Shown here one piece after another: positions 13,799 through 64,000 of a stretch of DNA of 64,000 nt. How positions within the stretch are numbered: the stretch's first letter is position 1; every line of letters begins with the position of its first letter. Location of the stretch: assembly GCA_963815455.1 (NCBI GenBank), contig CAWFGO010000002.1, positions 576,001 to 640,000 on the forward strand, in the 5' to 3' direction. The notes beneath the pieces were generated by a model. It worked only from the letters and a program-made list of their open reading frames with translations, was not told the origin of the DNA and did not search any database. The stretch is from an uncultured Verrucomicrobiae bacterium (GTDB lineage Bacteria; Verrucomicrobiota; Verrucomicrobiia; Chthoniobacterales; UBA10450). The position numbers and the translations under genes are program-made.

Positions 13799-13805
13799 GG
13801 AAGAA

Positions 13806-13833
13806 GTTGAGAGTTGATGGTTGAGAGTTGAGG
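13806..13833. repeat. Heptamer tandem array (GTTGA..) x4 in the pdhB-pdhC spacer
   Basis: GTTGAGA GTTGATG GTTGAGA GTTGAGG. Confidence 0.8.
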
Positions 13834-23384: not shown

Positions 23385-24332
23385 CTATTTTCGCCACTCC
23401 CGGCGAGGCGGCGGGGCGGCAAATGCCTCGGGCGCAATCTCGTGCGCCGTCCGGAAATGGACCTTGGCCACCTCCCGCAGCGCTTCCGGGCCACCTTTTT
23501 CCACCACCTTTTTCGCCGTCTCTTTTACGGCAGGCGATATCCCTCGCTCCAAGCTTAAACCGAGCTCCTTGCCCTTGCGATCCAGCCAGTTGATGAAACC
23601 CTCGCGCGCCAGAATCGATGCCCCAGCCACCGCAATGTCCGATTCCGCCTTCGTGCGTTGTTGGATGTCGATCTTGCGCCCGTGCCCAAACAGCGATTGC
23701 TCGATTACTCGCACGTCCGCGAATTGATCCGACAACGACCGCGGACAGTCCGGCTTTTTCGCCAGCAGATTCTCGATTACCCGGGCGTGTCCCCAGCCAA
23801 GCAGCTTGTTGAGATTGCCGAATTTCTCGTAAAGCTCGTTATATTTTTTCGGGCCGATCAGGACTGTCTCGACCAGGCCAAGCGAAGTTTTTCGTATCGT
23901 ATCGGCCAACGCGCGAATCCGTGCATCGGAGGTGATCCGTTTGCTGTCTACAACGCCGGCATCGAGAAGGTTCCGGGCGATCCCACGATCGACATACATC
24001 CCGGCGATTACCAGCGGCCCAAAAAAATCGCCCTTCCCGCTCTCGTCCACCCCGAAATGCGGCTCGAACATTTCCGGCGAATGCACTTCCTCGTAGCCGA
24101 GCTTGGCTTCTCCCAGAATTTTCGGCTCGAGCTCAAATTGCACGAACTCCTCCAGGCCCTTTCCCTGAAGCAGAATCTTGGGTCCCTTCTCGTAAACCGC
24201 CACGCTCAGCTTGTTTTTCTGCGCGAAAAAAATCGTGTAGGGCTTGGGCGAGAATTCAAATCCGAGTTCGTCGAGCAACTCGCGAAGTTTCGTCACCTGC
24301 TCGCTTGTGAGCGCGTGGGTATAGGAATTCAA
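23385..24332 (-). CDS. rnhC: Ribonuclease HIII
   Basis: N-terminal TBP-like domain, GVDESGKGDFFGPLV, DSKR, DQF, KAES..VAGASILAR and KVHF. Confidence 0.93.
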   Translation of the reverse strand: MNSYTHALTSEQVTKLRELLDELGFEFSPKPYTIFFAQKNKLSVAVYEKGPKILLQGKGLEEFVQFELEPKILGEAKLGYEEVHSPEMFEPHFGVDESGKGDFFGPLVIAGMYVDRGIARNLLDAGVVDSKRITSDARIRALADTIRKTSLGLVETVLIGPKKYNELYEKFGNLNKLLGWGHARVIENLLAKKPDCPRSLSDQFADVRVIEQSLFGHGRKIDIQQRTKAESDIAVAGASILAREGFINWLDRKGKELGLSLERGISPAVKETAKKVVEKGGPEALREVAKVHFRTAHEIAPEAFAAPPPRREWRK

Positions 24333-24408
24333 CGCTCAACGCTCAACGTTCAACGCCCAACGTTCAATTATCTTCTGCATTGCCCATAGGGACGTTGGGC
24401 GTTGAGCG
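24328..24408. repeat. Inverted heptamer tandem arrays ((T/C)CAACG(C/T))n ... (CGTTG(G/A)G)n
   Basis: TCAACGC TCAACGC TCAACGT TCAACGC CCAACGT TCAA, then GACGTTGGGCGTTGAGCG 22 nt later. Confidence 0.85.
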
Positions 24409-24510
24409 CTTCGCCCCACGACATCCGAAAATTCCGCTTCCCGCCGCCCCGCTGGCATCGCCGAACCGGCACTTGACCCTTGCTACAGGAAAAAAATCGG
24501 CTTGCCATAT

Positions 24511-43092: not shown

Positions 43093-43920
43093 GCCCCCAA
43101 TGGGGCGACGAACGTTAGCCGGTGGTGCAAACCACCGGCCACGAAGTATAAGGCATCCCAAGCCCCGGCAGGGGCGCTGGACCCACACACATATGCCATC
43201 AACACATTTGAGTTTGCATTACCACATTGTCTTCGGAACCAAGAATCACGAACCAGTGATCCAGCCCAACTGGTGTCCCAAATTGCATGCTTATCTCGGT
43301 GGAATCATTCGCGCCGCAGACGGAGTCGCCGAATGCGTCGGCGGTGTGTCTGATCATGTTCACCTGCTTGTTGGACTTCGGGCGACACACCGGTTGGCCG
43401 ACGTGCTTCGCGAACTAAAGGCCGTTTCGTCCGGCTGGGTGCACGATGAGATCGGTGCCCGTGAGTTTGCGTGGCAGGAAGGCTATGGCGCGTTCACCGT
43501 GAGCGCCTCTCAACGCGGAACAGTTCGTCGTTATATCGAGCAACAGGAGGAACACCATCGCACCCGCACGTTTCGTGAGGAGTATTTGGAGTTGCTGCGC
43601 CGCAGCGATGTGGAATTTGATGAACGGTATGTCTGATCCGACGCCCCGCTGGGGCTGGTGATCTTATGGATTCTGCAACCGGTGGTTTGCACCACCGGCT
43701 AATATCCAGACGACCCTTCGGGTCTGAATGAGTTCAGATCATTCATGATGGGATCAATTAATTCACTAGCCCCAACCGGGCGTCGCACATTAGCCGGCGG
43801 TGCTAGCCACCGGCCGCGGGATCAATCAGATCCCTAGCCCCAACTGGGCGACGGACGTTAGCCGGTGGTGCAAACCACCGGTGCGCGGAGCGCCAAAGCA
43901 TCAGCCCCGGCAGGGACGAC
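43093..43920. mobile_element. Y1 transposase locus with flanking REP-like repeat array (REPtron-like)
   Basis: Four copies of TTAGCCGGTGGTGC..ACCACCGG (3 direct, 1 inverted), each paired with GCCCC-N3/4-GGG(G)C hairpins, around the tnpA. Confidence 0.8.
43193..43636 (+). CDS. tnpA: IS200/IS605-superfamily HUH (Y1) transposase
   Basis: HIVFGTK, DHVHLL (HUH), FAWQEGYGAFTVS and YIEQQEEHH. No tnpB follows. Confidence 0.92.
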   Translation: MPSTHLSLHYHIVFGTKNHEPVIQPNWCPKLHAYLGGIIRAADGVAECVGGVSDHVHLLVGLRATHRLADVLRELKAVSSGWVHDEIGAREFAWQEGYGAFTVSASQRGTVRRYIEQQEEHHRTRTFREEYLELLRRSDVEFDERYV

Positions 43921-52392: not shown

Positions 52393-53496
52393 ATGAGAAA
52401 AATTAGAATCGCGATTGTCGGCGTCGGAAACTGCGCCAGTTCACTTGTCCAGGGAATCAATTTCTACAATGGCGCCTCCCCCAATGGCACCAGCGTCGGC
52501 CTGATGCACCGCCAGATCGGCTCTTACAAGCCCAGCGACATCGAAGTCGTGGCCGCGTTCGACATCGACCGGCGCAAGGTAGGCCTCGATGTCAGCAGGG
52601 CGATCTTCTCGCCCCCCAACTGCACTAAGGTCTTCTGCGACAAGGTTAAACTCACCGGCGCGATCGTGAAAATGGGCTGCGTATTTGACAGTTTCGCCCC
52701 CCACATGGCCGAGCAGGACCCGCTCCGCACCTTCCTCCCGCTGGAAAAGGAATCCACCCGCGAGGAAATCATCTCCGAGCTCAAGAATTCCTCCGCCGAA
52801 ATGATGGTCAATTATCTACCGGTCGGCTCCGAGGAAGCGACCCGTTTCTACGCCAGTTGCGCCCTCGAAGCCGGGCTCGGTTTCGTCAATAACATCCCCG
52901 TTTTCATCGCCAGTGATCCCGTTTGGGCAAAGAAATTTGCCGATAAAAATCTCCCGCTGGTCGGCGACGACATCAAAGCGCAGCTCGGGGCCACGGTTTT
53001 GCATCGCAGCATTGTCGATCTTTTCCGCAAACGCGGAGTCAAAGTCGAACGGACCTATCAGCTGAACACCGGCGGCAACACCGATTTCCTGAACATGCTC
53101 AATCGCGCCCGGCTGGCCTCGAAGAAAACTTCAAAGACTGAATCGGTGCAATCGGTCATGGGCGAACGCCTGGCCGACGAGAACATTCACATTGGACCCA
53201 GCGATTACGTTCCCTGGCAGCTCGACAACAAGATCGCCTTTATCCGTGTTGAAGGCCGGCTCTTCGGAAACGTCCCGATGGAACTCGACGTTAAGCTTTC
53301 GGTCGAGGACTCGCCCAACTCGGCCGGAATCGCCATTGACTCCATTCGCTGCTGCAAGCTCGCACTCGATCGCGGGATCGGCGGTGTCCTCCATTCGCCA
53401 TCCGCATTTTTCTCCAAGCATCCGCCCGTCCAGATGACCGACGACGAAGCTCACCGGTGCGTCGAGCAATTCATCCGCGGCGAGCGCGAGAACTAG
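52393..53496 (+). CDS. ino1: myo-inositol-1(3)-phosphate synthase
   Basis: IVGVGNCASSLVQG, NYLPVGSE, GDDIKAQLGAT, YQLNTGGNTDFLNM and DSPNSAG. Confidence 0.95.
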   Translation: MRKIRIAIVGVGNCASSLVQGINFYNGASPNGTSVGLMHRQIGSYKPSDIEVVAAFDIDRRKVGLDVSRAIFSPPNCTKVFCDKVKLTGAIVKMGCVFDSFAPHMAEQDPLRTFLPLEKESTREEIISELKNSSAEMMVNYLPVGSEEATRFYASCALEAGLGFVNNIPVFIASDPVWAKKFADKNLPLVGDDIKAQLGATVLHRSIVDLFRKRGVKVERTYQLNTGGNTDFLNMLNRARLASKKTSKTESVQSVMGERLADENIHIGPSDYVPWQLDNKIAFIRVEGRLFGNVPMELDVKLSVEDSPNSAGIAIDSIRCCKLALDRGIGGVLHSPSAFFSKHPPVQMTDDEAHRCVEQFIRGEREN

Positions 53497-56400
53497 CCGG
53501 TTAGATCTCGCAGACGTTTCCACTCGCGGAATAGTTCGTCCGGTTCAAAGCGGACAATTACGCCGGTTGCTGTTGAATAAAGCGCCGCTTCGACGGGTAA
53601 ATTGGCCATCTCGCTCACTGCTTTCCAATAGGATGCGAGCTGGGGACGATATAATTTACGCAATTCGTCAAGTTCGTTAGGCCCAACGCGATTCGTTTTC
53701 CAATCAAGGATTAACGCTTTGTCGGCCGTCCGATCAATCAGGGCGAGGTCGATCACGCCTTCGAGGCACGTGCGTTCGCTCATTCGCCAGAGAAATTGCA
53801 TCTCTGAATGCGCGGCCAATTCAGCGCGGGAGAGAAGCTCCGAGAAATCCCGGTCGTTCTGCAGGCATAGCAGGAAGAGGTTCCATTCATCCGCGGACCG
53901 CTTCGGTTCTGGCGATGTCATCTGGTGTTTTTCGAAAGTTTGTTTCCATGAAGTTTTGTCACGCCACGATACCCGTTGCATCAAGTCATGCCACCAACGC
54001 CCATACAACGTGGCGGGCGTGTCCGCAGTCGATTGGCCGATGCCGAGCCAGGACGAACGTTCATTGATTTCACCGGCCGGCGCCCGGATGATCTCCTCGT
54101 CGTAGCCGCTCGGATTAAACTTTCGAACGAAGGCTTCTGCGCGTCGTTGCGCTATTTTCAGTCCTTTTCGATCGATCCGCAGAAGCGGTTGCGCATCCAC
54201 CTCGACCGCGCGGGCAGTGGCCAGCTCTCTTGCCTTTGCTGTCTCCTGGCAAGTCCCCGGCTCGAGGCTGAGAGCGTCGAAGTGCGGTTGGTTGATGTTC
54301 TTTTCACCGAGCAGGCATTTCAGTTGCGCGTCGTTTTGCGTGCCTCCACTGGCGCGCGCGAAAATTTCTTCATCAAGCGCGAGGACTAGCGTGTGGCGCG
54401 CGCGGGTAATGGCGACGTAAAGAAGTCGCGCCATCTCCTGACGCACAGCCATCTTGGTCGCGTCGCGGTCCTCGCTTTTGAAATCGTCTTTCGTCAACGC
54501 CACCAGGACTTCGCTCGAACCCGGGACCTTGATAATACTGGGATAACGCGGTGACGGCGGCGGGACATTGCGCGCGAGGAAAGGCAGAATGACGGCCTGC
54601 CATTCCGATCCTTTCGCTTTCTGAGCCGTAATGAGGTGAATGCCTTCGTCGTGCGAACGGCGGACCTCGCGCGGGAGAAGAAAATCGAGGCGCAGCTTTT
54701 CTGCGAAATCGGCGAGTGTGCTGCCGGCGGCCTCGGCCTCCGCCGCGAATGCGAGGAGGCGATCAAGATCGCCTTCGAGATCATCAAAATCTTCCCGTGG
54801 AAGAGCGGTAAGCTTTTGACGTAATTGCGTTTGCTCGACCAAAAATTGTACGGCGTCGAACAGGGCGCGGCCCTCCACTTGTCGCTGCGTTTCGGCGAGC
54901 AAACGAAGCGGCGAAGAAACAATGCCGGTGGCGGCTTGCCGTGCATCTAGTTGAAACCGGCTCCCTTGGCCTTCACAGAAGATCGCAAGATCACGATCCG
55001 CGATGCCGAAGACTTCGCGCAGAACGCCCACGATTTCGTAGCTGTTGCTCGGATCGGCCATGATCGTGCAAAGCGCAGTCAGCCAGGCATAAGCCGGGTT
55101 ATCTCCCCTGAGATCGCTTTCCGATTGCATCGAAACCGGGAGATCGACGCGGCGCAATGCGTTAGCCATGGTGCGGAGCCACGCCTTGCGCGGGCACAGA
55201 ATCGCCACATCGCGCCAGGTGTCGGCGCGCAGGTTCTCGAGTCCCGTCTGTTTGATCCAATCAGCGAGCTCTCTTGCTTCGATCTGCGCCTTGCGATACT
55301 CCTTCAGCTTTTGTCCGGCCGGAAGAAGGCCCGCGCCGAGCGACACGCGAATGACCTGGCCGGGAAGAACATCTTCACGCGGCTGAAGATTAACGAATTT
55401 CACCTGCCCCTCTTTTTCGTTCAGGATATTGCCAAAAATATCGTTCACGAAATCCAGCTGCTTTTGGTCGAGCCGGAACGTGACCGAAAATTCGAGCGTG
55501 TCACCGGCATCGGTTCCAACAAGCGCGTCATGAATGGCCTGGTAATTTTTCAAATCCGCGCGGTCGCGATAGATCGATTGCTGGAAATCGCCCACCATGC
55601 AGAAGTGCCCGGCCCGCGGCGGCGCGGCGCCTGTTTCCAGCCAGCGACCGGTCGCCTGGGGTGGGCGTGCCAGTTCAGCCAGAACCAAGAATTGCACGGG
55701 ATCGGTATCCTGCGCTTCGTCGAGAATCACGCGAAAATTTTCCTCGCGCAATCGTCGGCCGGCGTCGGGATGCTGCAATAATTCGTCGGCCAGAGCGACT
55801 TGGTCCGCGTAGGTGACCAGTCCACGGGCGACGCGAAAATTCCGGAAATCGCGCTGCACTTCCGCGGCCACACAACGGGCCGCGTCGGCTACCCAGCCGC
55901 GCAACGGCGCGAAGATCGCGGTCCACGTTTCCTTGAATTTCTCTGCTTCGCAGCTGCGGATGGGCCAGCGGACAAACTCCCACCCGGATTTGCGACGTGC
56001 CTCCCATTCGGCCAGCTCCGCTTGTGAATCGGTAATCGTGTTGAGCGATCTGCCGGAAGCAACGACGGCGTGAATCCGAGCGGTATCGACCTCGGGACAC
56101 GGGCCGATTTCGGTCGTCGCCGCAAGCAGCGAGCGCGCATTGCGTCCCAGCTCCATGAGTTGCCGCGCCGGCGCGAGGCGAAAGAGCGCTGTGCGCGTTT
56201 CCTCGCTCAGGCTACGCCCGAAGTGATGATGTTGTTGGACGAAAGCCTGCCAGATTTCCTCATCATCTTCCGCTACCAAATCCAGCGGAAAAGGCAGGCC
56301 GAGATGGTGTCCGTGACTCATGAGCAGTTTCATGCAGAAGCTGTGAATCGTGCCGAAGAACGCGCGATTGAAAGCCGCCTGAATATCAGGTGAGCGATGC

Positions 56401-56636
56401 TCTTGGAGAATGCGTTGCCGGGTGCGCTGTTGCATCTCGTCGGCGGCCCGATGCGTGAACGTGACCACGACCAGCTTGGGCAGAATTTCCCGCGCGTTGG
56501 GGCCCCCCGCCAGATGGACAATGCGCTCGGTGATGGCGTAGGTCTTTCCCGAACCGGCAGAGGCGACGACGGAGAAATTGCGATCCAATTCCTCCGCGAA
56601 CCGCCGCCGGGCTGCATGATCGCGCGGTTCGCTCAC
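53493..56636 (-). CDS. addA: UvrD-like helicase/nuclease, AddA-type
   Basis: ASAGSGKT, TFTHRAA, DEAQDT, VGDFQQSIY, KAKGSEW and LLYVAITRAR; C-terminal GVIDL..DWKT..QL..Y nuclease. Confidence 0.88.
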   Translation of the reverse strand: MSEPRDHAARRRFAEELDRNFSVVASAGSGKTYAITERIVHLAGGPNAREILPKLVVVTFTHRAADEMQQRTRQRILQEHRSPDIQAAFNRAFFGTIHSFCMKLLMSHGHHLGLPFPLDLVAEDDEEIWQAFVQQHHHFGRSLSEETRTALFRLAPARQLMELGRNARSLLAATTEIGPCPEVDTARIHAVVASGRSLNTITDSQAELAEWEARRKSGWEFVRWPIRSCEAEKFKETWTAIFAPLRGWVADAARCVAAEVQRDFRNFRVARGLVTYADQVALADELLQHPDAGRRLREENFRVILDEAQDTDPVQFLVLAELARPPQATGRWLETGAAPPRAGHFCMVGDFQQSIYRDRADLKNYQAIHDALVGTDAGDTLEFSVTFRLDQKQLDFVNDIFGNILNEKEGQVKFVNLQPREDVLPGQVIRVSLGAGLLPAGQKLKEYRKAQIEARELADWIKQTGLENLRADTWRDVAILCPRKAWLRTMANALRRVDLPVSMQSESDLRGDNPAYAWLTALCTIMADPSNSYEIVGVLREVFGIADRDLAIFCEGQGSRFQLDARQAATGIVSSPLRLLAETQRQVEGRALFDAVQFLVEQTQLRQKLTALPREDFDDLEGDLDRLLAFAAEAEAAGSTLADFAEKLRLDFLLPREVRRSHDEGIHLITAQKAKGSEWQAVILPFLARNVPPPSPRYPSIIKVPGSSEVLVALTKDDFKSEDRDATKMAVRQEMARLLYVAITRARHTLVLALDEEIFARASGGTQNDAQLKCLLGEKNINQPHFDALSLEPGTCQETAKARELATARAVEVDAQPLLRIDRKGLKIAQRRAEAFVRKFNPSGYDEEIIRAPAGEINERSSWLGIGQSTADTPATLYGRWWHDLMQRVSWRDKTSWKQTFEKHQMTSPEPKRSADEWNLFLLCLQNDRDFSELLSRAELAAHSEMQFLWRMSERTCLEGVIDLALIDRTADKALILDWKTNRVGPNELDELRKLYRPQLASYWKAVSEMANLPVEAALYSTATGVIVRFEPDELFREWKRLRDLTG

Positions 56637-59600
56637 GAGTAGAAGTCCTCCTCATCTTTAACCAGCGCCGGATGGGTGAGCTCCCAACGTTGCTCAAGAA
56701 TGTCCTGCTCCACCGCGAGGGTGGCCAGCGGATAGGCATCGATAAATTGATAGTCGGAGCGCAACGGTCCGTGCAGGCCGAAAACGCCGGTCCGTTGCAT
56801 TTTCGCCAGCTCGGCAAAAATCTCGGCCTCGCTCGAAAATTCATTTCCCGAAATCTGCGGGGCAAATGGCCTAACGCCTGGCGAAAGCAGACTGGCCTCG
56901 GTCTCTCTCGCGCCGAGCGCGCCGGCCGCGATGGAGTAAAGGCCAAGCTGCAGGGCCGTGCGATCGAGCAGCCTCTTCTTGAGGGCGGGGCGGCGGCCAT
57001 CCGCATCCATTTTCCCCGCGAACAGGGCCTTCTTGGCGCCGATTTTGTAATCGATAATCCAAAGATGCTCGCTCGCGAGCGACCCGGCGGATGGCTCGTC
57101 GCGCGCGAGAAGGAGATCGATGCGGCCGCGCAAAGAAAGGGCTTCAGCGTTGACAGGGAAACTGCCTTCGATACTCCATTCCGTGGCCATCCAGGGCCAG
57201 TCGGCCACCGTCGCCAGTTTTTCGGCCAGAACGCGAGCGAGAAAGAGCGCGTGTCGCCAGCCACCCATCCACCAATCGGGCACCGATCTCCCGGCTGCGT
57301 CGCAAAGGCGCTCGATCTCCGAGCGCTTTGCTTTTGCGGCGGCGCATACGCATTCCTCGATTTCGGCAGCCGACGGGAAATGAGCGAATTTCTTCTCTCC
57401 GCCTTGGGCGATAGCGGCGAGCCAGCTGTGCACCCATTTTCCAGTCGAGGTGTTCCAGACATTGTCGCTTTCCTCGGGCGCCTCGACGCCGAGATATTTT
57501 TTCATCCAGACAAGTGCAGGCGCGAGGAGGAGCTGCTCGAAATCGCTCACACTCAAGACGGGAACTGCCGGAGGGTTCGACGAGAACGCGAAGTCGTACT
57601 CTCCGGAGCGTGCAGTCGGATCCCGGCGGGCATCGTAGGCAATCCGCGCCGGCTCGGTTTTCGGCGACGCCGCATCGTTTTTCTTTTTATCGCGCGTCTC
57701 GAGGATCCAGCGACGGGTCCGCATTTGCAGATCGCTCAACGCCGGCTGGGTCAGCGCCCGGCGATACGTTTCCTGATAATGCCGGGTAAACAATTCGCTC
57801 GGGTTCCAAAGACGTTCCGGGGCAGATTCCTGGATCAGACTCGCGGTGAACGCGATTCCCTCAGTGGCTGATTCGAGCAAATTTTGAAATTGCCGCAGCG
57901 CCATCTGTCGCTGCTCGGATGGGCCGAGATAAAGCGAATAGCCATCGCGGACGCTGGTATGTCCCTCGCCCTGGCGGCCTTGTTTTGTGGCCCGGCGGTT
58001 CAGTTGCCGGATACTGCGATTGAATTTTTGAATTTCCTCTTCCCGCGCAAACTCGCCCCGGTCGGGAGGCGGCCAGCTTCCTTCGTTCAATCCAGCAAGA
58101 ATCAGATGGGACCACTCCTGTCCCTGCGCCTGCGGGATGGTCATCAGCTGAACCCGTGCGTAGGGATGATCACCTGCCGGGTCGCGGCCCACGCTGAAGG
58201 TGGAGGCAATTTCTTCCAGCCATCGCAAATACAATGCTCGCGAGAAATCAGCTTTGACCTTGCCGGCCCAGTCGCTGCTTCGACTCGCGACTTCCATCCA
58301 ATGCTGTTTCCAATTCAGCCGCGAAAACGCACTTTTCGTTGCGTCGAGGAATACCGAAAAAGTTGCGTGCGCCGGAAGAAATTCAATCGTCTGAAGCGCT
58401 TTCGCGACCTGTTGATTCCTTTGGTTCGGCTCGTCGGTGCAGAACTTTTGCAAGATGGCCAGGTCGTCGATCAGGACGTCAGCGTAGGCGGAGCGGAGTG
58501 TCCGTTCAAAGCGCTGGAGAGGCACGTCAGGAAATAGCTCGTCGCGATTTCGAAGCGCACCGAGAAATCGAAGGAGCGAATTGACCCGTGGCCCATGCTG
58601 AAGCTGCAACCAAGCGCGCCATTCGGCCGATTCAAACACGCCTGGAACAGGATGCCCGAGCCCATCGCTGTGCGGAATGGCAAACTTTGAAAGCGCGCCG
58701 GCAACCAGACGAGGCAGTGCTCCGCTATCCGGGAAGATGATACCAATATTTGTGCAACTTTTCTCAGCCAGGAATCGCAGACACAACAATGCAATCGCCT
58801 CGGCCTGCTCCGTGGTATCGGCACCGACGACGAACAAGGATGTCGCCCGCGGAACGCCGGTCCCTTTCATCTCCGCCTCGGTAAACAGGCTGTCGCCGAC
58901 TGGATTTGCCGGCCCCGATATCGGTTTCGCTTCGCCAAACCTTTCTTCCCATGTGCCGACCCACGTTTCGTCGATGTCGCGCGCTTCATCGCGCGGATCA
59001 TCGAGAAGGACTGTTGCTTCTTTCGCCGACGTGACTGCCGCCCGGAGGAGAGGCCAGAGCGGCCAGTGCGTGCCGTTAAATCCGGTCACGAGAATATTGG
59101 AAATGATGGGCGGACCGCCACTTGCCTGCTCAAGCGCCTGCCGATCGGCTGTGTGGATCAATTCGAACCCGCAATCCGCGAGTTGCTGTTGAAATCGGGC
59201 CTCCACCTTTCGCAACGCCGGAAGTTCGACTGCCGAAAAATCCCAACCCGCCGCGCCCAGCTGATCGATTGCCCGGAGCAAGTGATCGGGAGCGCGCGCC
59301 ACAGATTTTGCCGCGAGAAAATCGGCTTCCAACATGCGCTTCTCGCGCAGCGTTGGATCTTCCGGGAGTTCCATGCATTCCTCCGCGGCAATCGAGAGGA
59401 GAAGACGTAAATGTTCTCGGAGCGCAAGACGGGTCTCGGTTTGCGCTGCCAGCAGCTCCCGCAGTTCGGCCGGTGCGACGAATCGGATACCGAGAACCGA
59501 CACGCCGTGATCGAGCAGCCGGCTCTTGATCGCGTAAGCATGACTGCGAAGCGGCACCGCCACCAAAGTGGGCAGTTGCTGCTGCCACGCGACGCGACTC

Positions 59601-59677
59601 GCGGCGTCAAACCATGGCGCCAAAACCGATTCCCACGCCGCGGAAGGCGAGCAGCCGAAGTGGAGCGAGACATTCAT
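56633..59677 (-). CDS. AddB-like inactive helicase with C-terminal PD-(D/E)XK nuclease
   Basis: LAGLNEGSWP, LSVS, LRGRIDL, IIDYK and QLGLY; GTGA overlap with addA. Confidence 0.8.
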   Translation of the reverse strand: MNVSLHFGCSPSAAWESVLAPWFDAASRVAWQQQLPTLVAVPLRSHAYAIKSRLLDHGVSVLGIRFVAPAELRELLAAQTETRLALREHLRLLLSIAAEECMELPEDPTLREKRMLEADFLAAKSVARAPDHLLRAIDQLGAAGWDFSAVELPALRKVEARFQQQLADCGFELIHTADRQALEQASGGPPIISNILVTGFNGTHWPLWPLLRAAVTSAKEATVLLDDPRDEARDIDETWVGTWEERFGEAKPISGPANPVGDSLFTEAEMKGTGVPRATSLFVVGADTTEQAEAIALLCLRFLAEKSCTNIGIIFPDSGALPRLVAGALSKFAIPHSDGLGHPVPGVFESAEWRAWLQLQHGPRVNSLLRFLGALRNRDELFPDVPLQRFERTLRSAYADVLIDDLAILQKFCTDEPNQRNQQVAKALQTIEFLPAHATFSVFLDATKSAFSRLNWKQHWMEVASRSSDWAGKVKADFSRALYLRWLEEIASTFSVGRDPAGDHPYARVQLMTIPQAQGQEWSHLILAGLNEGSWPPPDRGEFAREEEIQKFNRSIRQLNRRATKQGRQGEGHTSVRDGYSLYLGPSEQRQMALRQFQNLLESATEGIAFTASLIQESAPERLWNPSELFTRHYQETYRRALTQPALSDLQMRTRRWILETRDKKKNDAASPKTEPARIAYDARRDPTARSGEYDFAFSSNPPAVPVLSVSDFEQLLLAPALVWMKKYLGVEAPEESDNVWNTSTGKWVHSWLAAIAQGGEKKFAHFPSAAEIEECVCAAAKAKRSEIERLCDAAGRSVPDWWMGGWRHALFLARVLAEKLATVADWPWMATEWSIEGSFPVNAEALSLRGRIDLLLARDEPSAGSLASEHLWIIDYKIGAKKALFAGKMDADGRRPALKKRLLDRTALQLGLYSIAAGALGARETEASLLSPGVRPFAPQISGNEFSSEAEIFAELAKMQRTGVFGLHGPLRSDYQFIDAYPLATLAVEQDILEQRWELTHPALVKDEEDFYS

Positions 59678-59702
59678 GGGACGAATGGAACTGATGAGAC
59701 AA
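59676..59702. repeat. 9-mer tandem array (ATG..AC..) x3, downstream flank of the four-helix-bundle gene
   Basis: ATGGGACGA ATGGAACTG ATGAGACAA. Confidence 0.8.
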
Positions 59703-59708
59703 ATTGAG

Positions 59709-60290
59709 CTATGTCGAGCGCCTGCGGCTCTTTTTTGCGCGGTGAGTCAAACGCGCCCGGGTCATCCGCTCGCGGAGACCGCCTTCCTCTAGGAAATCGT
59801 TTTCCAGCCTACGGAGCAGTTGGTCGAGGAGAAAGTTTGCCTGGTGAATCAAGCAAATGAGAATATTTGCCACCACTTCGGGCGGGCGCGTTTCGACATA
59901 CGTCTCATAAGTCCTATATGTCACATCCTCTTTTCTGCCAAGCCTTCGCACAAACAACGCCTCCCGGCAGTTCTTCTCCCAAAGCCGCATCTTTCGCACT
60001 CTTAAAAAATCCAAATAGTCCTCGATAAGTTCTTGCAGGCTGGCTCGAGCCACACCGGTTAACTTAATCTCCGCTTCTTTGGATGTCGCCGAAGCCAAGC
60101 TACCCTCGATAATATTTTGTTTTCCCGAGCGCGCGGCTTGCACCATCTGGTCAACTGTGCGGTCCCGTTTGTCCAAAAACCGCTCGCAGAATCTCACCGT
60201 GGCCTGAAAAACGATCAGCGCTTTTTGGTAAGCAACAAGATCCTCATATCCGCCATGCGGCGGGATAAAACCTTCAGGCTCACCAGGCAT
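59709..60290 (-). CDS. Four-helix-bundle protein with suffix domain (TIGR02436/TIGR04258-like)
   Basis: HGGYEDL.AYQ, RTVDQMVQAARSGKQNIIEGS, VARASLQELIEDY and DFLEEGGLRERMTRAR. Confidence 0.9.
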   Translation of the reverse strand: MPGEPEGFIPPHGGYEDLVAYQKALIVFQATVRFCERFLDKRDRTVDQMVQAARSGKQNIIEGSLASATSKEAEIKLTGVARASLQELIEDYLDFLRVRKMRLWEKNCREALFVRRLGRKEDVTYRTYETYVETRPPEVVANILICLIHQANFLLDQLLRRLENDFLEEGGLRERMTRARLTHRAKKSRRRST

Positions 60291-60317
60291 ATGTCCCATT
60301 TGTCACATAGGTCCCAT
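60288..60317. repeat. Inverted 9-mer tandem array, upstream flank of the four-helix-bundle gene
   Basis: Reverse complement reads ATGGGACCT ATGTGACAA ATGGGACAT ATG. Confidence 0.8.
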
Positions 60318-62189
60318 CTATAGCAACCGTCGCTTATCGCCCACCCGTCGGGTAACGCCATCGCGGTCCAGCAATTCGAGCAACGGCACAATGATTCGCC
60401 GCGATGTTTGCAGTTCCTGGCGCAACTGGCTCACGGTAGCTGCGCCCTGCCCTGAAATAAATCGCGAGATCGCACTTTTCATTTGGGCGAAGGCTGACCG
60501 CGTTAGGAAGGTTTCGGGGACAAGTTCAACAATCTCGCCCTGTTCGATCAAAAATTTCATCGCTTTGCGCGATTCCGGATCGTCTTGCTTTTGATTCGGC
60601 GGATCGAACGGTTTAACCGAGAGACTGGCGACGATCTCCTGCGCGGCGTTCTTAAGCGCGGGCGGCAGCGCCGGAGAATGTGTGCGCAGCGCGATAGCGG
60701 ATCCAACGCGAGCAATATCTTTGCAGGCAAGATCGACAAGCAGGGCGTCGAAAGCCTCCTGCGAAAGGCCGGGAAGTTTTGCGCGCAGGTCGCTCAGTTC
60801 CATGCCAACCCGCTCGGGATACGTTTGATGCTCGGCTTGAACGAATGCGAGGACGCGATCGCGAAGCTCTTGCCACACACCAATATCGGCGGCGATCTTT
60901 CCGTTCGAAAAAATCTTTCCGCGCTGTTGCAGCCGGGTCAGCGCCGCGCCCACTTCCCCGGCACTGAAATGCGATCTGCCCAGCAGATTTTCAGACACGA
61001 TCGCACCGCGGCGCGCGATTTCCGTTTCCAGGCAAGTGTCAACATCTTCAAACGCAGTCGCGCGCGCCGTGAGCAGTTCGCGTTGCGCGTCGCTCCGGAA
61101 TTTTCTTTCGTCCCCATCCGGATCGAGCACGACTCCGCCGGCGATCGTGTGTTGTTCGGAGGGATCTCGCAGAACGAATTGATCGCCGAGAAAGGTGAGA
61201 ACGGGCGAGCCCAGCCGCAGCTGCGCCAGGGCATTTTCCCCGCCGGGCAACGCTTCCCTGTCGAGAAAAATCACTTTTGCCGGCACCCGCGACGTGCCGT
61301 GGTGCAAATAGGCGGACGCGCCGGACTTGAGTGGCGCTGCCCGCCGCAAACGGGGTGATCGGCTTAGAACAACATCAAGCGTTGCAGTCGGCTCGAATCC
61401 TTCAATCGCGACAACGTCGCCACGGACGACTTGTTCGCCGACGGCCACGTCCGGAAGATTGAGTGCCGTGCGCATCCCAGGTCCGGCAAGATCGACATCT
61501 TCCCCATGGGTTTGAATCGAACGGATGCGCGCGGCAAAGTTACGTGGCTGTACAACGACGGCATCGCCGCGACGGAGAGTCCCCCCGGTTAAGGTGCCGG
61601 TCACGACCGTGCCGATTCCGTGAAGCGTGAACACTCGATCGATGGACAAGCGCGGTTTGCCGATGTCGCGCTGCGGTTGCATTCCCGCGAGTTCGACGGC
61701 AAGCGCGCTTCTCAGATCCTCAATTCCTTCGTCGGTTCGAACCGAAGTTGGAATGATCGCAGATTGGGCAAGAGCGGTCCCGTGAAGTTGTTCTCGAATT
61801 TGTCCAGCCACCGAGTCGATGTTCCCCAAATCGCTTTTTGTCAGCGCGATCACTGCGCGTTGAACACCTAAGTATGTCAGAATCTGCAAATGCTCCTCTG
61901 TTTGCGGCATCCAACCATCATCCGCGGCGACAACCAAAAGCGCGAGATCGATCGAGCCAACCCCAGCGATCATGTTGCGGACGAAGTCCTCGTGACCGGG
62001 AACATCGACAATTCCTGCGTGAATGCCTTGGCCGAGATTCAACTCCGCAAAACCGAGGTCGATTGTTATTTGCCGCGCCCTTTCCTCAGGCAGCCGATCG
62101 GGATCAGTTCCCGTCAGCGCTTTGACCAACGCGCTCTTGCCATGATCGACGTGACCGGCAGTGGCGATGATGTAATGACGCGCTGTCAC
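60318..62189 (-). CDS. selB: Selenocysteine-specific elongation factor
   Basis: TAGHVDHGKS, DRLPEE, ITIDLGFA, DVPGHE, MPQTEEH and C-terminal SRRIIVPLLELLD...RVGDKR winged helix. Confidence 0.95.
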   Translation of the reverse strand: MTARHYIIATAGHVDHGKSALVKALTGTDPDRLPEERARQITIDLGFAELNLGQGIHAGIVDVPGHEDFVRNMIAGVGSIDLALLVVAADDGWMPQTEEHLQILTYLGVQRAVIALTKSDLGNIDSVAGQIREQLHGTALAQSAIIPTSVRTDEGIEDLRSALAVELAGMQPQRDIGKPRLSIDRVFTLHGIGTVVTGTLTGGTLRRGDAVVVQPRNFAARIRSIQTHGEDVDLAGPGMRTALNLPDVAVGEQVVRGDVVAIEGFEPTATLDVVLSRSPRLRRAAPLKSGASAYLHHGTSRVPAKVIFLDREALPGGENALAQLRLGSPVLTFLGDQFVLRDPSEQHTIAGGVVLDPDGDERKFRSDAQRELLTARATAFEDVDTCLETEIARRGAIVSENLLGRSHFSAGEVGAALTRLQQRGKIFSNGKIAADIGVWQELRDRVLAFVQAEHQTYPERVGMELSDLRAKLPGLSQEAFDALLVDLACKDIARVGSAIALRTHSPALPPALKNAAQEIVASLSVKPFDPPNQKQDDPESRKAMKFLIEQGEIVELVPETFLTRSAFAQMKSAISRFISGQGAATVSQLRQELQTSRRIIVPLLELLDRDGVTRRVGDKRRLL

Positions 62190-63547
62190 ACTGTGCACGC
62201 CGCCCGAATCGCATCGACTACGAGATCATCCTGGTGCGGGAAAATTGTGCGCAGATCGAGCTTGAAACGATCGTCGGCGATGTAACCGATGACCGGCGGA
62301 CTTGCGGCACGCATGTTCTTTGCGAAATCTACGACCGAACCGTTTCCAGGAAGGATGTCGATGGTAATCGAGGACATGATCGACCGCGGCAATGTCCCAC
62401 CGCCGACCTTGGCTTTGCCTCGCCCGACCGCAATTTGCAGCGGTAGTCCCTTCAACCGCGAAAAAATGGCGGCTGCGCGGGCGCGCAGTTCATCTTTAGA
62501 AATCTGCAACAACGCGAGCGCCGGGATTTCGCCACTCGATTGATTGAGATGAAGATCGACGGTGGATTGCAGCGCGGCCAGGCAAAGTTTGTCGCAGCGC
62601 AGCGCGCGAAACAACGGTTCGCGTCTGAGCGCGGCAACGAAGCGCCTTTTCCCGGCGATGATTCCCGCCTGCGGTCCACCGAATAATTTATCGCCGCTGA
62701 AACAAACGAGATCGGCCCCGTTCTTCAACGCTTCGGCCGGCGTCGGCTCGTGTTCGTCAACTCCCAGTCGTTCCGATTCAACGATCGCGCCGCTTCCCAA
62801 ATCCTCCACGAACGGGACGCGCTTCTTTCGCGCGAGCGCAACGATCTCCGCCGATGAAGGCGATTCCACGAAACCGCTCATGAAAAAATTGCTACGGTGA
62901 ACTTTCAGAATCATTGCGGTGTCGCGTCCGATAGCGCGCGCATAATCGTTCAACGTGGTCTTGTTGGTCGCCCCGATCTCGCGCAGTTTGCCGCCGGCCG
63001 CTTCGATGATTTCCCCAATCCGAAAACCGCCACCGATCTGGACCATTTCACCCCGCGAGACGACAACATCGGATTTGGTCCTGGTAAAATGCTGCACGAT
63101 CAGAACCAGCGCGGCGGCGCAGTTATTTACGATGGCAACTGCTTCGGCGCCGCACAGTACGGCAATCGCATTCTCGATGTAGACGCCACGCTTGCCGCGT
63201 CCGCCCGTCACGAGATCGAATTCGAGATTCGAGTAACCGGCACCGGTCTCGGTGAGCGCACGAATTGTCTCCGGAGCGAGCGGCGCCCGCCCGAAGTTGG
63301 TATGAATGACGATGCCAGTCCCGTTGATAACCGGTTGAACGCGTCCGGCTCGAAGTTCCTCGAGCGAGCCGCGGACAAGATCGACAATGGATTCGACCGC
63401 GGGAACTTTCCCCCCGGCCCGAATGTTTGAAAGCTGGCGGCGAACAAGATCGACAACCAACGGACGCGGCAAGTCGATCGGCCCCATCGCGTCCAGCACT
63501 TTGGTGACCGCTGGAATATCGCGCCGCGTTGCTATTCGCTTATGCAT
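62186..63547 (-). CDS. selA: L-seryl-tRNA(Sec) selenium transferase
   Basis: VINGTGIVIHTNFGRAPL, VNNCAAA, SRGEMVQIGGGFRI, KVHRSNF and FSGDKLFGGPQAG. Confidence 0.96.
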   Translation of the reverse strand: MHKRIATRRDIPAVTKVLDAMGPIDLPRPLVVDLVRRQLSNIRAGGKVPAVESIVDLVRGSLEELRAGRVQPVINGTGIVIHTNFGRAPLAPETIRALTETGAGYSNLEFDLVTGGRGKRGVYIENAIAVLCGAEAVAIVNNCAAALVLIVQHFTRTKSDVVVSRGEMVQIGGGFRIGEIIEAAGGKLREIGATNKTTLNDYARAIGRDTAMILKVHRSNFFMSGFVESPSSAEIVALARKKRVPFVEDLGSGAIVESERLGVDEHEPTPAEALKNGADLVCFSGDKLFGGPQAGIIAGKRRFVAALRREPLFRALRCDKLCLAALQSTVDLHLNQSSGEIPALALLQISKDELRARAAAIFSRLKGLPLQIAVGRGKAKVGGGTLPRSIMSSITIDILPGNGSVVDFAKNMRAASPPVIGYIADDRFKLDLRTIFPHQDDLVVDAIRAACTV

Positions 63548-64000
63548 AAGAGCGGCTCCCTCGCCGAAACAACTTTGCCGATCACTGCGGCACAAGGCAC
63601 CCGACGCCGTTTCAAAAGGTTCCGCACTTTCTCCCAGCGGCTCGGCTTCACGCACAGAAGCAAGCCACCGCTGGTTTGCGCGTCGGTAAGGAGAATTCGT
63701 CGGATCGAAGACGTTTTTCCCCAATCGACAATCTTGTTCGCAGCTTTCAAGTTGTCGCTGCTACCCCCAGGAATACAATCGCGTCCGATCAACTCGAAAA
63801 CTTCTTTGTCGATGGCGGGAACTTGATCTGCGGAAATTTCAGCACTCACCCCGCTGGCCCGGCACATCGATCCGAGATGACCGAGCAATCCAAATCCGGT
63901 GATGTCGATCGCGGCTCGAATCAGGTCGCGTTCCGCCAGATCCGCGCCCACAGAATTAATTTTTGTCATGAGCGAGATGGTTTTCGCCGCCAGCGCGCGC
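63532..64000 (-). CDS. selD: Selenide, water dikinase, C-terminal part
   Basis: DITGFGLLGH and DAQTSGGLL; directly upstream of selA. Confidence 0.92.
   Translation of the reverse strand, partial: RALAAKTISLMTKINSVGADLAERDLIRAAIDITGFGLLGHLGSMCRASGVSAEISADQVPAIDKEVFELIGRDCIPGGSSDNLKAANKIVDWGKTSSIRRILLTDAQTSGGLLLCVKPSRWEKVRNLLKRRRVPCAAVIGKVVSAREPLLCISE

Follow-up and report, generated by a model that had tools for sequence, protein, structure and literature searches.

Organization of the locus

The window, a stretch of 64,000 nucleotides of DNA from an uncultured Verrucomicrobiae bacterium, contains a four-helix-bundle gene in the junction between selB and an addB-like gene, the latter followed by an addA-like helicase gene (Table 1). 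The gene is bracketed by two arrays of 9-mers in inverted orientation, here termed the 5' and 3' arms, and bears a third array, overlooked in the initial annotation, in frame within its coding sequence. The gene and both arms make up a unit of 642 bp, the termini of which, ATGGGAC and GTCCCAT, constitute a perfect 7-bp inverted repeat. The sequence, the profile scores and the HMM matches confirm the initial annotation in that a four-helix gene between inverted 9-mer arrays fills the selB-addB gap, and the terminal repeats of the unit are as it described them.

Table 1. Features of the selB-addB region (coordinates within the window)
Feature	Coordinates	Strand	Evidence
selB, upstream host gene	60318..62198	-	TIGR00475, 324.7 bits
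5' arm: three 9-mers, consensus ATRGGACYT, then ATG	60288..60317	-	profile score 28.0
Four-helix-bundle gene, TIGR04258/TIGR02436, 196 aa (193 from the second ATG)	59709..60299	-	HMM matches and structure model
Internal array: in-frame 9-mers, sense of the 5' arm	59897..59926	-	profile score 29.0
3' arm: three degenerate 9-mers, inverted orientation	59676..59704	+	profile score 18.2, predicted fold
addB-like gene, PD-(D/E)XK nuclease, downstream host gene	56633..59677	-	PF12705
addA-like helicase gene, after the addB-like gene	53493-56636		addA/recB models below cut-off

The stop codon of selB (60318-60320, minus strand) directly abuts the 5' arm, which lies in the selB frame and includes a mini-ORF of 4 codons (60317-60303); both candidate starts of the four-helix gene, at 60299 and 60290, are located within this arm. 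At the opposite end, the last two bases of the 3' arm are the AT of the addB start codon, and the arm is pyrimidine-rich on the mRNA, with no purine-rich ribosome-binding site visible. The 9-mer unit is nearly palindromic, and the two arms are 72% complementary over 29 nt. No direct repeat that would represent a target duplication was found at the ends of the unit, and, as initially stated, no transposase motif is present, none of the transposase families having been detected at the locus in the Pfam and NCBIfam scans. Rfam has no matches in 58500-61500, and the locus lies between selB and addB, not inside an rRNA gene. The promoter scan yielded no sigma-70-like sites, and three terminator-like sites against 1.5 expected.

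The surrounding region (53493-63724) is a mosaic: compared with the same-genus genome G001, selA is 80% identical, selB 58% and addB 44%, and addB is 65-68% identical to its counterparts in G009, G018 and G034. Elsewhere in the window, an empty inverted pair of heptamers (24329-24412), a solo heptamer array (13805-13832) and a Y1 (HUH) transposase-like gene without flanking arrays (43211-43546) were observed.

The four-helix-bundle protein

The encoded protein is a member of TIGR04258 (83 bits against a cut-off of 40, residues 140-188) and of TIGR02436 (30.4 bits against 24), and falls short of the gathering score of PF05635 (23S_rRNA_IVP; 29.1 bits, E 1.2e-6, against 33.8). No catalytic family was detected in it by the Pfam and NCBIfam scans. 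The structure model (pLDDT 86.5) is a four-helix bundle of Xcc0516/Avd topology, the predicted order of elements being helices 1-3, an insert of some 40 residues, helix 4 and a further helix at the C terminus. The top fold matches of the model are Xcc0516 (2GSC; Z 15.4, rmsd 1.5, 110 residues aligned) and BT_0352 (2RLD; Z 13.4). The relationship of the fold to that of Avd, proposed in the initial annotation, is borne out by the comparison with 4DWL and 8UB7 (Z 11.4-11.8 at 10% identity), the Avd Z-scores being in the range of common helical bundles, with unrelated bundles ranking close behind. Foldseek returned no match at E<=0.001, its top five rows being Xcc0516, and the sequence search of solved structures gave a chance-level match only (E 0.98). 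The prediction of a four-copy complex (score 0.02) was counted neither for nor against oligomerization. By analogy with its relatives, the protein likely forms a homopentameric Avd-like ring; Avd itself is described as a pentamer with an RNA element bound (10.1101/2023.10.23.563531).

The repeat arrays and the array within the coding sequence

The 7-mer terminus alone is common (271 copies in this genome). The arrays were evaluated with a 9-mer profile whose training set consisted of flanking sequences of other genomes only, and the control maximum, over 132 windows, was 4.7, to be compared with the scores of the three arrays in Table 1. Across the genome the profile has 6 matches, all of them located within or next to the two TIGR04258 genes; with its columns shuffled, the profile gives 1-5 matches genome-wide, so that the signal resides in the location of the matches and not in their count. 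The present locus fails the unsupervised inverted-array test applied below because its arms are too degenerate, and the evidence at this locus is provided by the profile and by folding instead.

The internal array encodes a predicted tyrosine-rich helix that is part of the insert between helices 3 and 4; the TIGR04258 and TIGR02436 models describe the protein only, whereas here an insert is partly encoded by the repeat. In a comparison with synonymous recodings that follow the codon use of the respective gene, the array is retained at the nucleotide level in the gene of the present locus (p 0.013), in all four selB-linked genome copies (p<0.05) and at synonymous sites in 15/15 closest relatives, which come from six phyla. 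At p<0.05 it was detected in 33/91 genes, with about 5 expected; the kin among these genes are not independent, and distant relatives mostly lack the array. The tyrosine codons have a TAT:TAC ratio of 104:51 in the array segment versus 221:314 elsewhere. A small hairpin is predicted for the array. Three loci (L069, L070 and L079) have the internal array and no flanking arrays, which points to the internal array being a site read by a protein and not a pairing partner.

The second TIGR04258 gene of this genome (C1:1594560-1595180, L065) is the only paralogue and is 59% identical; it has a variant of the 9-mer in both orientations upstream and an inverted array downstream, with no conserved internal array. 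Longer TIGR04258 relatives were observed at L061, L062 and L068, two of them with a C-terminal cysteine-rich tail. A different 9-mer lies upstream at L062 and L068, and in each of the three the linker of the protein contains a low-complexity repeat that matches.

The 9-mer across phyla

The best 80 relatives in species genomes represent many phyla, at 55-74% identity, and 73 of them have enough flanking sequence for analysis. The 9-mer is present on at least one flank at 51 of these 73 loci (both flanks at 17, neither at 22) and in none of 132 control windows, the loci being related and the counts therefore not independent. The neighbours of the cassette are unrelated among loci, and include EngA, a ligase, ETF, SecD, DXP synthase, type I restriction subunits and others (same-strand ORFs only, 78 of the 139 neighbours being scanned). 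Taking the longest ORF as a crude call for each neighbour, the upstream one shares the strand of the gene in 56/70 cases and the downstream one in 35/69. The initial annotation considered the locus a small, possibly mobile module; the self-contained unit of gene plus arrays at many unrelated loci fits this description, but the copy at hand is old and has not been recently mobile, as detailed below. Among viral contigs, one relative was found.

Matches to the 9-mer pattern were found in 17 of 61 genomes. All five genomes with at least four matches have a TIGR04258 gene, and in three of them most of the matches belong to the arrays of the gene itself; no match is present in 8 of the 14 genomes that carry the gene, and 11 genomes that lack it have one or two. 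The unpublished genomes G003, G008 and G015 enter the tallies only, and no conclusion rests on them. In G042, the TIGR04258 gene of which is array-flanked, there are 57 matches; in the 20 regions viewed, the arrays are intergenic and of mixed orientation, often located after stops or between convergent genes. The present genome has no solo 9-mer arrays despite its two TIGR04258 genes. A locus of G042 (L206, C2:2131506-2133602) resembles a composite element, in which the four-helix gene and an ORF labelled by eye as dehydrogenase-like lie between inverted 9-mer arrays that are near-identical and separated by about 2 kb.

Array-flanked four-helix genes in this and other genomes

There are 20 TIGR02436 matches in this genome, at 19 loci. 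Collecting these genes genome-wide, a check proposed in the initial annotation, gave a positive outcome: 15 of the 19 four-helix genes pass the unsupervised inverted-array test, as do 2/2 GxxExxY genes, versus 9 of 1246 other small called genes. Each four-helix locus has its own repeat unit of 6-10 bases. The same association was found in relatives, for which 80 of the listed TIGR02436 loci were taken and 77 were usable: arrays are present upstream in 68, downstream in 69 and on both sides in 60, compared with 15 of 178 distant flanks. Arrays at two-sided TIGR02436 loci, 10 of which are from the present genome, are inverted rather than direct in 67/70 cases. The two GxxExxY (TIGR04256) genes in inverted arrays are located at G000 C2:225057-225491, where the arrays are of 10-mers and the gene is split over two frames, and C1:134415-134760. 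Four four-helix genes look broken by a frameshift or early stop, with both arrays kept (G000 C1:895307, C3:356613, C3:619977 and C3:722821).

These data bear on one rival explanation, that of an ordinary host gene beside functionless repeats made by slippage. It would account for the 22 relatives that have no flanking array at the threshold and for the degeneracy of the arms at the present locus, which fails the unsupervised test; it is difficult to reconcile with the same 9-mer unit recurring across phyla, the synonymous-site conservation of the internal array, the prevalence of inverted orientation and the excess of array-flanked four-helix genes over other small genes, and is considered very improbable.

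A periodicity scan of the genome revealed 471 arrays, 265 of which have a period of 7, 8 or 10. An inverted partner lies within 1.5 kb of 83 of the 265, versus 2 at distant control sites, and 38 are inside called genes, which by simple gene calls make up 83% of the genome. Short inverted pairs are empty in 34 rows, and all 17 rows (16 loci) of inverted pairs with a gap of 300-620 nt enclose a four-helix or GxxExxY gene. Solo 7/8/10-mer arrays are not nearer to starts than the within-gap null (41 versus 45.6 of 149), nor is their adjacency to starts or stops above the null. The similarity of the proteins weakly predicts the type of array (Mantel rho 0.22, p 0.002, n 90), a correlation that is also explained if the gene and its arms share descent.

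This arrangement is reminiscent of REP/RAYT systems, in which a gene for a HUH (Y1) transposase lies between inverted copies of a repeat, the repeats are palindromes of 20-40 bases, and they also occur dispersed and as empty pairs. A RAYT-like explanation would be that the four-helix protein recognizes the arrays in DNA form, either double-stranded or folded into hairpins, and acts together with an enzyme of the host or of a helper in seeding and maintaining the dispersed arrays, the three arrays of the present locus being operator or end sites. The near-palindromic unit, the numerous matches of mixed orientation in G042 next to an array-flanked TIGR04258 gene, the inverted pairs that are either empty or enclose a four-helix or GxxExxY gene, and the Mantel correlation are consistent with this explanation. 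However, the gene is not a Y1 gene, no catalytic family was detected in its product, the units are tandem and of 6-10 bases, and none of the 16 Y1-transposase matches in this genome has flanking arrays; dispersed copies of the flanking 9-mer, many in G042, are lacking here despite two genes, the Mantel result also fits shared descent, and the register of the arrays relative to the start codons is left unexplained. DNA recognition of this kind appears somewhat unlikely.

The selB-addB junction in relatives and the age of the insertion

An addB match is present in 36/61 genomes. Twenty addB regions were viewed, 18 of them with the selB end, among which three are filled (G022, G024, G035) and 15 empty. 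Nine metagenome loci include two filled alleles (L318, of which L322 is a cut-off copy, and L321), four empty alleles with addB, and two loci without addB in view. Arrays surround the selB stop in 5/5 other filled alleles measured and in 1/21 empty alleles. In all six selB-linked copies the 3' array extends into the start codon of the following gene, and in five of them its last unit keeps exact 9-base phase; the gene that follows is addB, at 43% identity, or recC, the latter replacing addB downstream of selB and the cassette in G022.

The search for empty junctions suggested initially did reveal empty alleles, but the accompanying claim that removal of the unit would restore TAG-ATG and place selB directly against addB is not supported: none of the 19 empty selB-addB junctions reads TAG-ATG, and the distance from the stop to the position of addB residue 1 ranges from 10 to 76 nt. 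The 5' arm abuts the stop only in the present genome, and overlaps the coding tail of selB in G024, G035 and L321. A module that is precisely inserted and excised, such that its removal as DNA or its looping out as RNA restores the junction, could be invoked on the basis of the perfect 7-bp termini, the gap filled exactly at this locus, the predicted stem (see below) and the existence of empty alleles. Apart from the absence of TAG-ATG and the uniqueness of the 5' geometry, the distance of the compared relatives and the single origin and age of the cassette argue against such a module, which we regard as the most improbable of the explanations considered. The nearest full selB stretches are 41-51% identical. 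In the metagenome scan, which yielded 10 loci, the nearest full matches are 45-50% identical, so divergent that the breakpoints of the insertion cannot be mapped from them.

A single clade (support 92, not starred) unites the proteins of the six filled alleles. The filled genomes mostly group in the selB tree and scatter over three strong clades in a quick addB tree; judging from these trees, the cassette follows selB among relatives. Comparison of the four genome copies gives an identity of 75-80% for the protein, versus 54-60% for selB, and of 0.39-0.50 at 4-fold sites (0.27-0.31 expected), which are thus near-saturated. The single clade and the near-saturated synonymous sites indicate one old insertion behind selB, and, by these sequence comparisons, the cassette is such an insertion maintained under purifying selection. 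Recent homing at the selB site is ruled out by the near-saturated 4-fold sites.

In the 96%-complete genome G010 (L159/L035), which has an empty allele and in which no TIGR04258 gene was found, a lone arm of the 5' type ends at the addB start and may be a deletion scar. In many empty relatives (loci L022-L050), an extended -10-like motif can be seen by eye 6-7 nt upstream of the start of addB. We take it to resemble a leaderless promoter; alleles with a short spacer and filled alleles do not clearly show it.

Predicted pairing of the arms in RNA

The arms are predicted to form a stem of 21 pairs, interrupted by internal loops (7+3+3+8), which masks the AU of the addB start, with probabilities above 0.9 for most of the paired bases. 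The region as a whole is not unusually stable as RNA (z -1.57; 1/20 shuffles as good). The internal array was considered as a competitor for the 3' arm and rejected, the predicted pairing being 0. The energy of arm pairing is -27.4 kcal/mol at the present locus, -20.6 in G024 and -9.8 in G035, and against non-cognate arms the own arms rank 6 of 22 (-27.4 versus -24.8). Over the 23 two-sided loci compared, predicted pairing is stronger between cognate arms than between arms swapped among loci (-29.2 versus -20.6 kcal/mol, permutation p 1e-4). A looser flank-to-flank count, which includes bases outside the arms, gives 55 pairs here, 47 in G022, 25 in G024 and 23 in G035. Pairing of the arms in the mRNA, as put forward in the initial annotation, is plausible at this locus, but is not well conserved at the selB site, and looping back to TAG-ATG finds no support.

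Like intervening sequences (IVS), the unit has terminal inverted repeats, here predicted to form the interrupted stem. In Coxiella, an IVS in the 23S rRNA contains the S23p ORF within a 28-bp stem, is excised by RNase III and has heptamer repeats before the ORF (PMC4990558). An mRNA version of this element, in which the paired arms would be cleaved by RNase III and the cassette removed, splitting the selB and addB messages, with the protein secondary, would draw on this precedent in the same protein family, on the RNase III gene (rnc) encoded in this genome, on the better pairing of cognate arms across loci and on the inverted orientation at two-sided TIGR02436 loci. However, the stem here is interrupted, compared with 28 nearly perfect pairs in Coxiella, and is weak in G035; two-sided arrays occur at just 17 of the 73 subfamily loci; the protein is under strong selection; the internal array is left unexplained; and genome-wide variants of the repeat could also make cognate arms match. 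Excision of the cassette from the message by RNase III is judged unlikely.

Relation to known systems

The best reading of the locus is that of an IVS-type guest cassette which, by the tests run, is neither an rRNA IVS, nor an insertion sequence, a diversity-generating retroelement (DGR) or a RAYT. With the ORF-bearing 23S rRNA IVS of Coxiella it shares the protein family, the inverted terminal repeats and the short tandem repeats before the start codon; it differs in its host, a protein-coding operon, in its short, interrupted stem, in the presence of an internal array, and in that the protein is under purifying selection rather than decaying. Unlike an insertion sequence or MITE, it has no transposase and no target duplication, and its sole paralogue is the divergent gene described above. 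The bundle is similar to that of DGR Avd, with the low identity noted, but the genome, which is 90% complete, yielded no match to a reverse transcriptase (PF00078), neither a template nor a variable repeat was seen, and the neighbours are selB and addB.

Short tandem arrays that end at start codons have also been described in Beggiatoaceae, where heptamers (TAACTGA) are located mostly just before start codons and an RNA-binding regulator has been proposed (PMC4679880); the units there are of 7 bases, and the terms "helix bundle", "S23" and "intervening" do not occur in that paper. Eighteen genes of the four-helix family have been reported in cas loci (PMC3936711). No description of a gene-plus-array system was found in the literature covered, which lies mostly outside subscription journals.

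Proposed mechanism and implications

The arrays lie over both start codons and within the gene, the 9-mer accompanies its protein subfamily across phyla, and the cassette entered the junction behind selB once, long ago. The explanation that we tentatively favour, at somewhat less than even chances, is that of an old resident guest cassette, the Avd-like-ring protein of which binds its own repeats in the mRNA, limiting its own synthesis and keeping addB translated. The protein would form an Avd-like ring, and the ring would bind the 5' and internal arrays in the mRNA; ribosomes leaving selB would reinitiate in the 5' arm and open the stem; and, with the repeats covering the start codons, the bound protein would limit its own synthesis while the next gene would be kept translated. 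The cassette may reach new loci rarely, through some agent. Binding of the repeats by the encoded protein, one of the options raised in the initial annotation, would agree best with the data. Such reading of the mRNA is supported by the occurrence of the 9-mer at subfamily loci and its absence from control windows, the unrelated neighbours, the array kept at synonymous sites, the start-codon register, the conservation of the protein and its fold. The mixed orientation of the solo arrays in G042, the null result for solo arrays, the weak stem in G035 and the middling rank of the own arms against non-cognate ones argue against it, and the near-palindromic unit makes RNA and DNA recognition indistinguishable from sequence.

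Taken alone, the present locus is of more modest interest, as an old, stable copy and not an active element. A broader proposal, possible although doubtful, is that four-helix (and GxxExxY) genes head undescribed protein-repeat systems, in which each subfamily is a ring-shaped binder of one short tandem repeat, moves as an array-armed cassette and seeds or controls hundreds of dispersed arrays of 7-10-base units between bacterial genes, the 9-mer subfamily having a binding site in its own coding sequence. The finding itself connects an orphan protein family, for which structures have been solved, with the short tandem arrays common in bacterial intergenic regions, both so far unexplained, and names a candidate ligand, namely the three 9-mer arrays, one of them kept at synonymous sites within the gene. 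If the binding is specific, these proteins would be natural readers of repeats, diverse in specificity, and would likely be ancestral or sister to DGR Avd and to the intervening sequences of rRNA.
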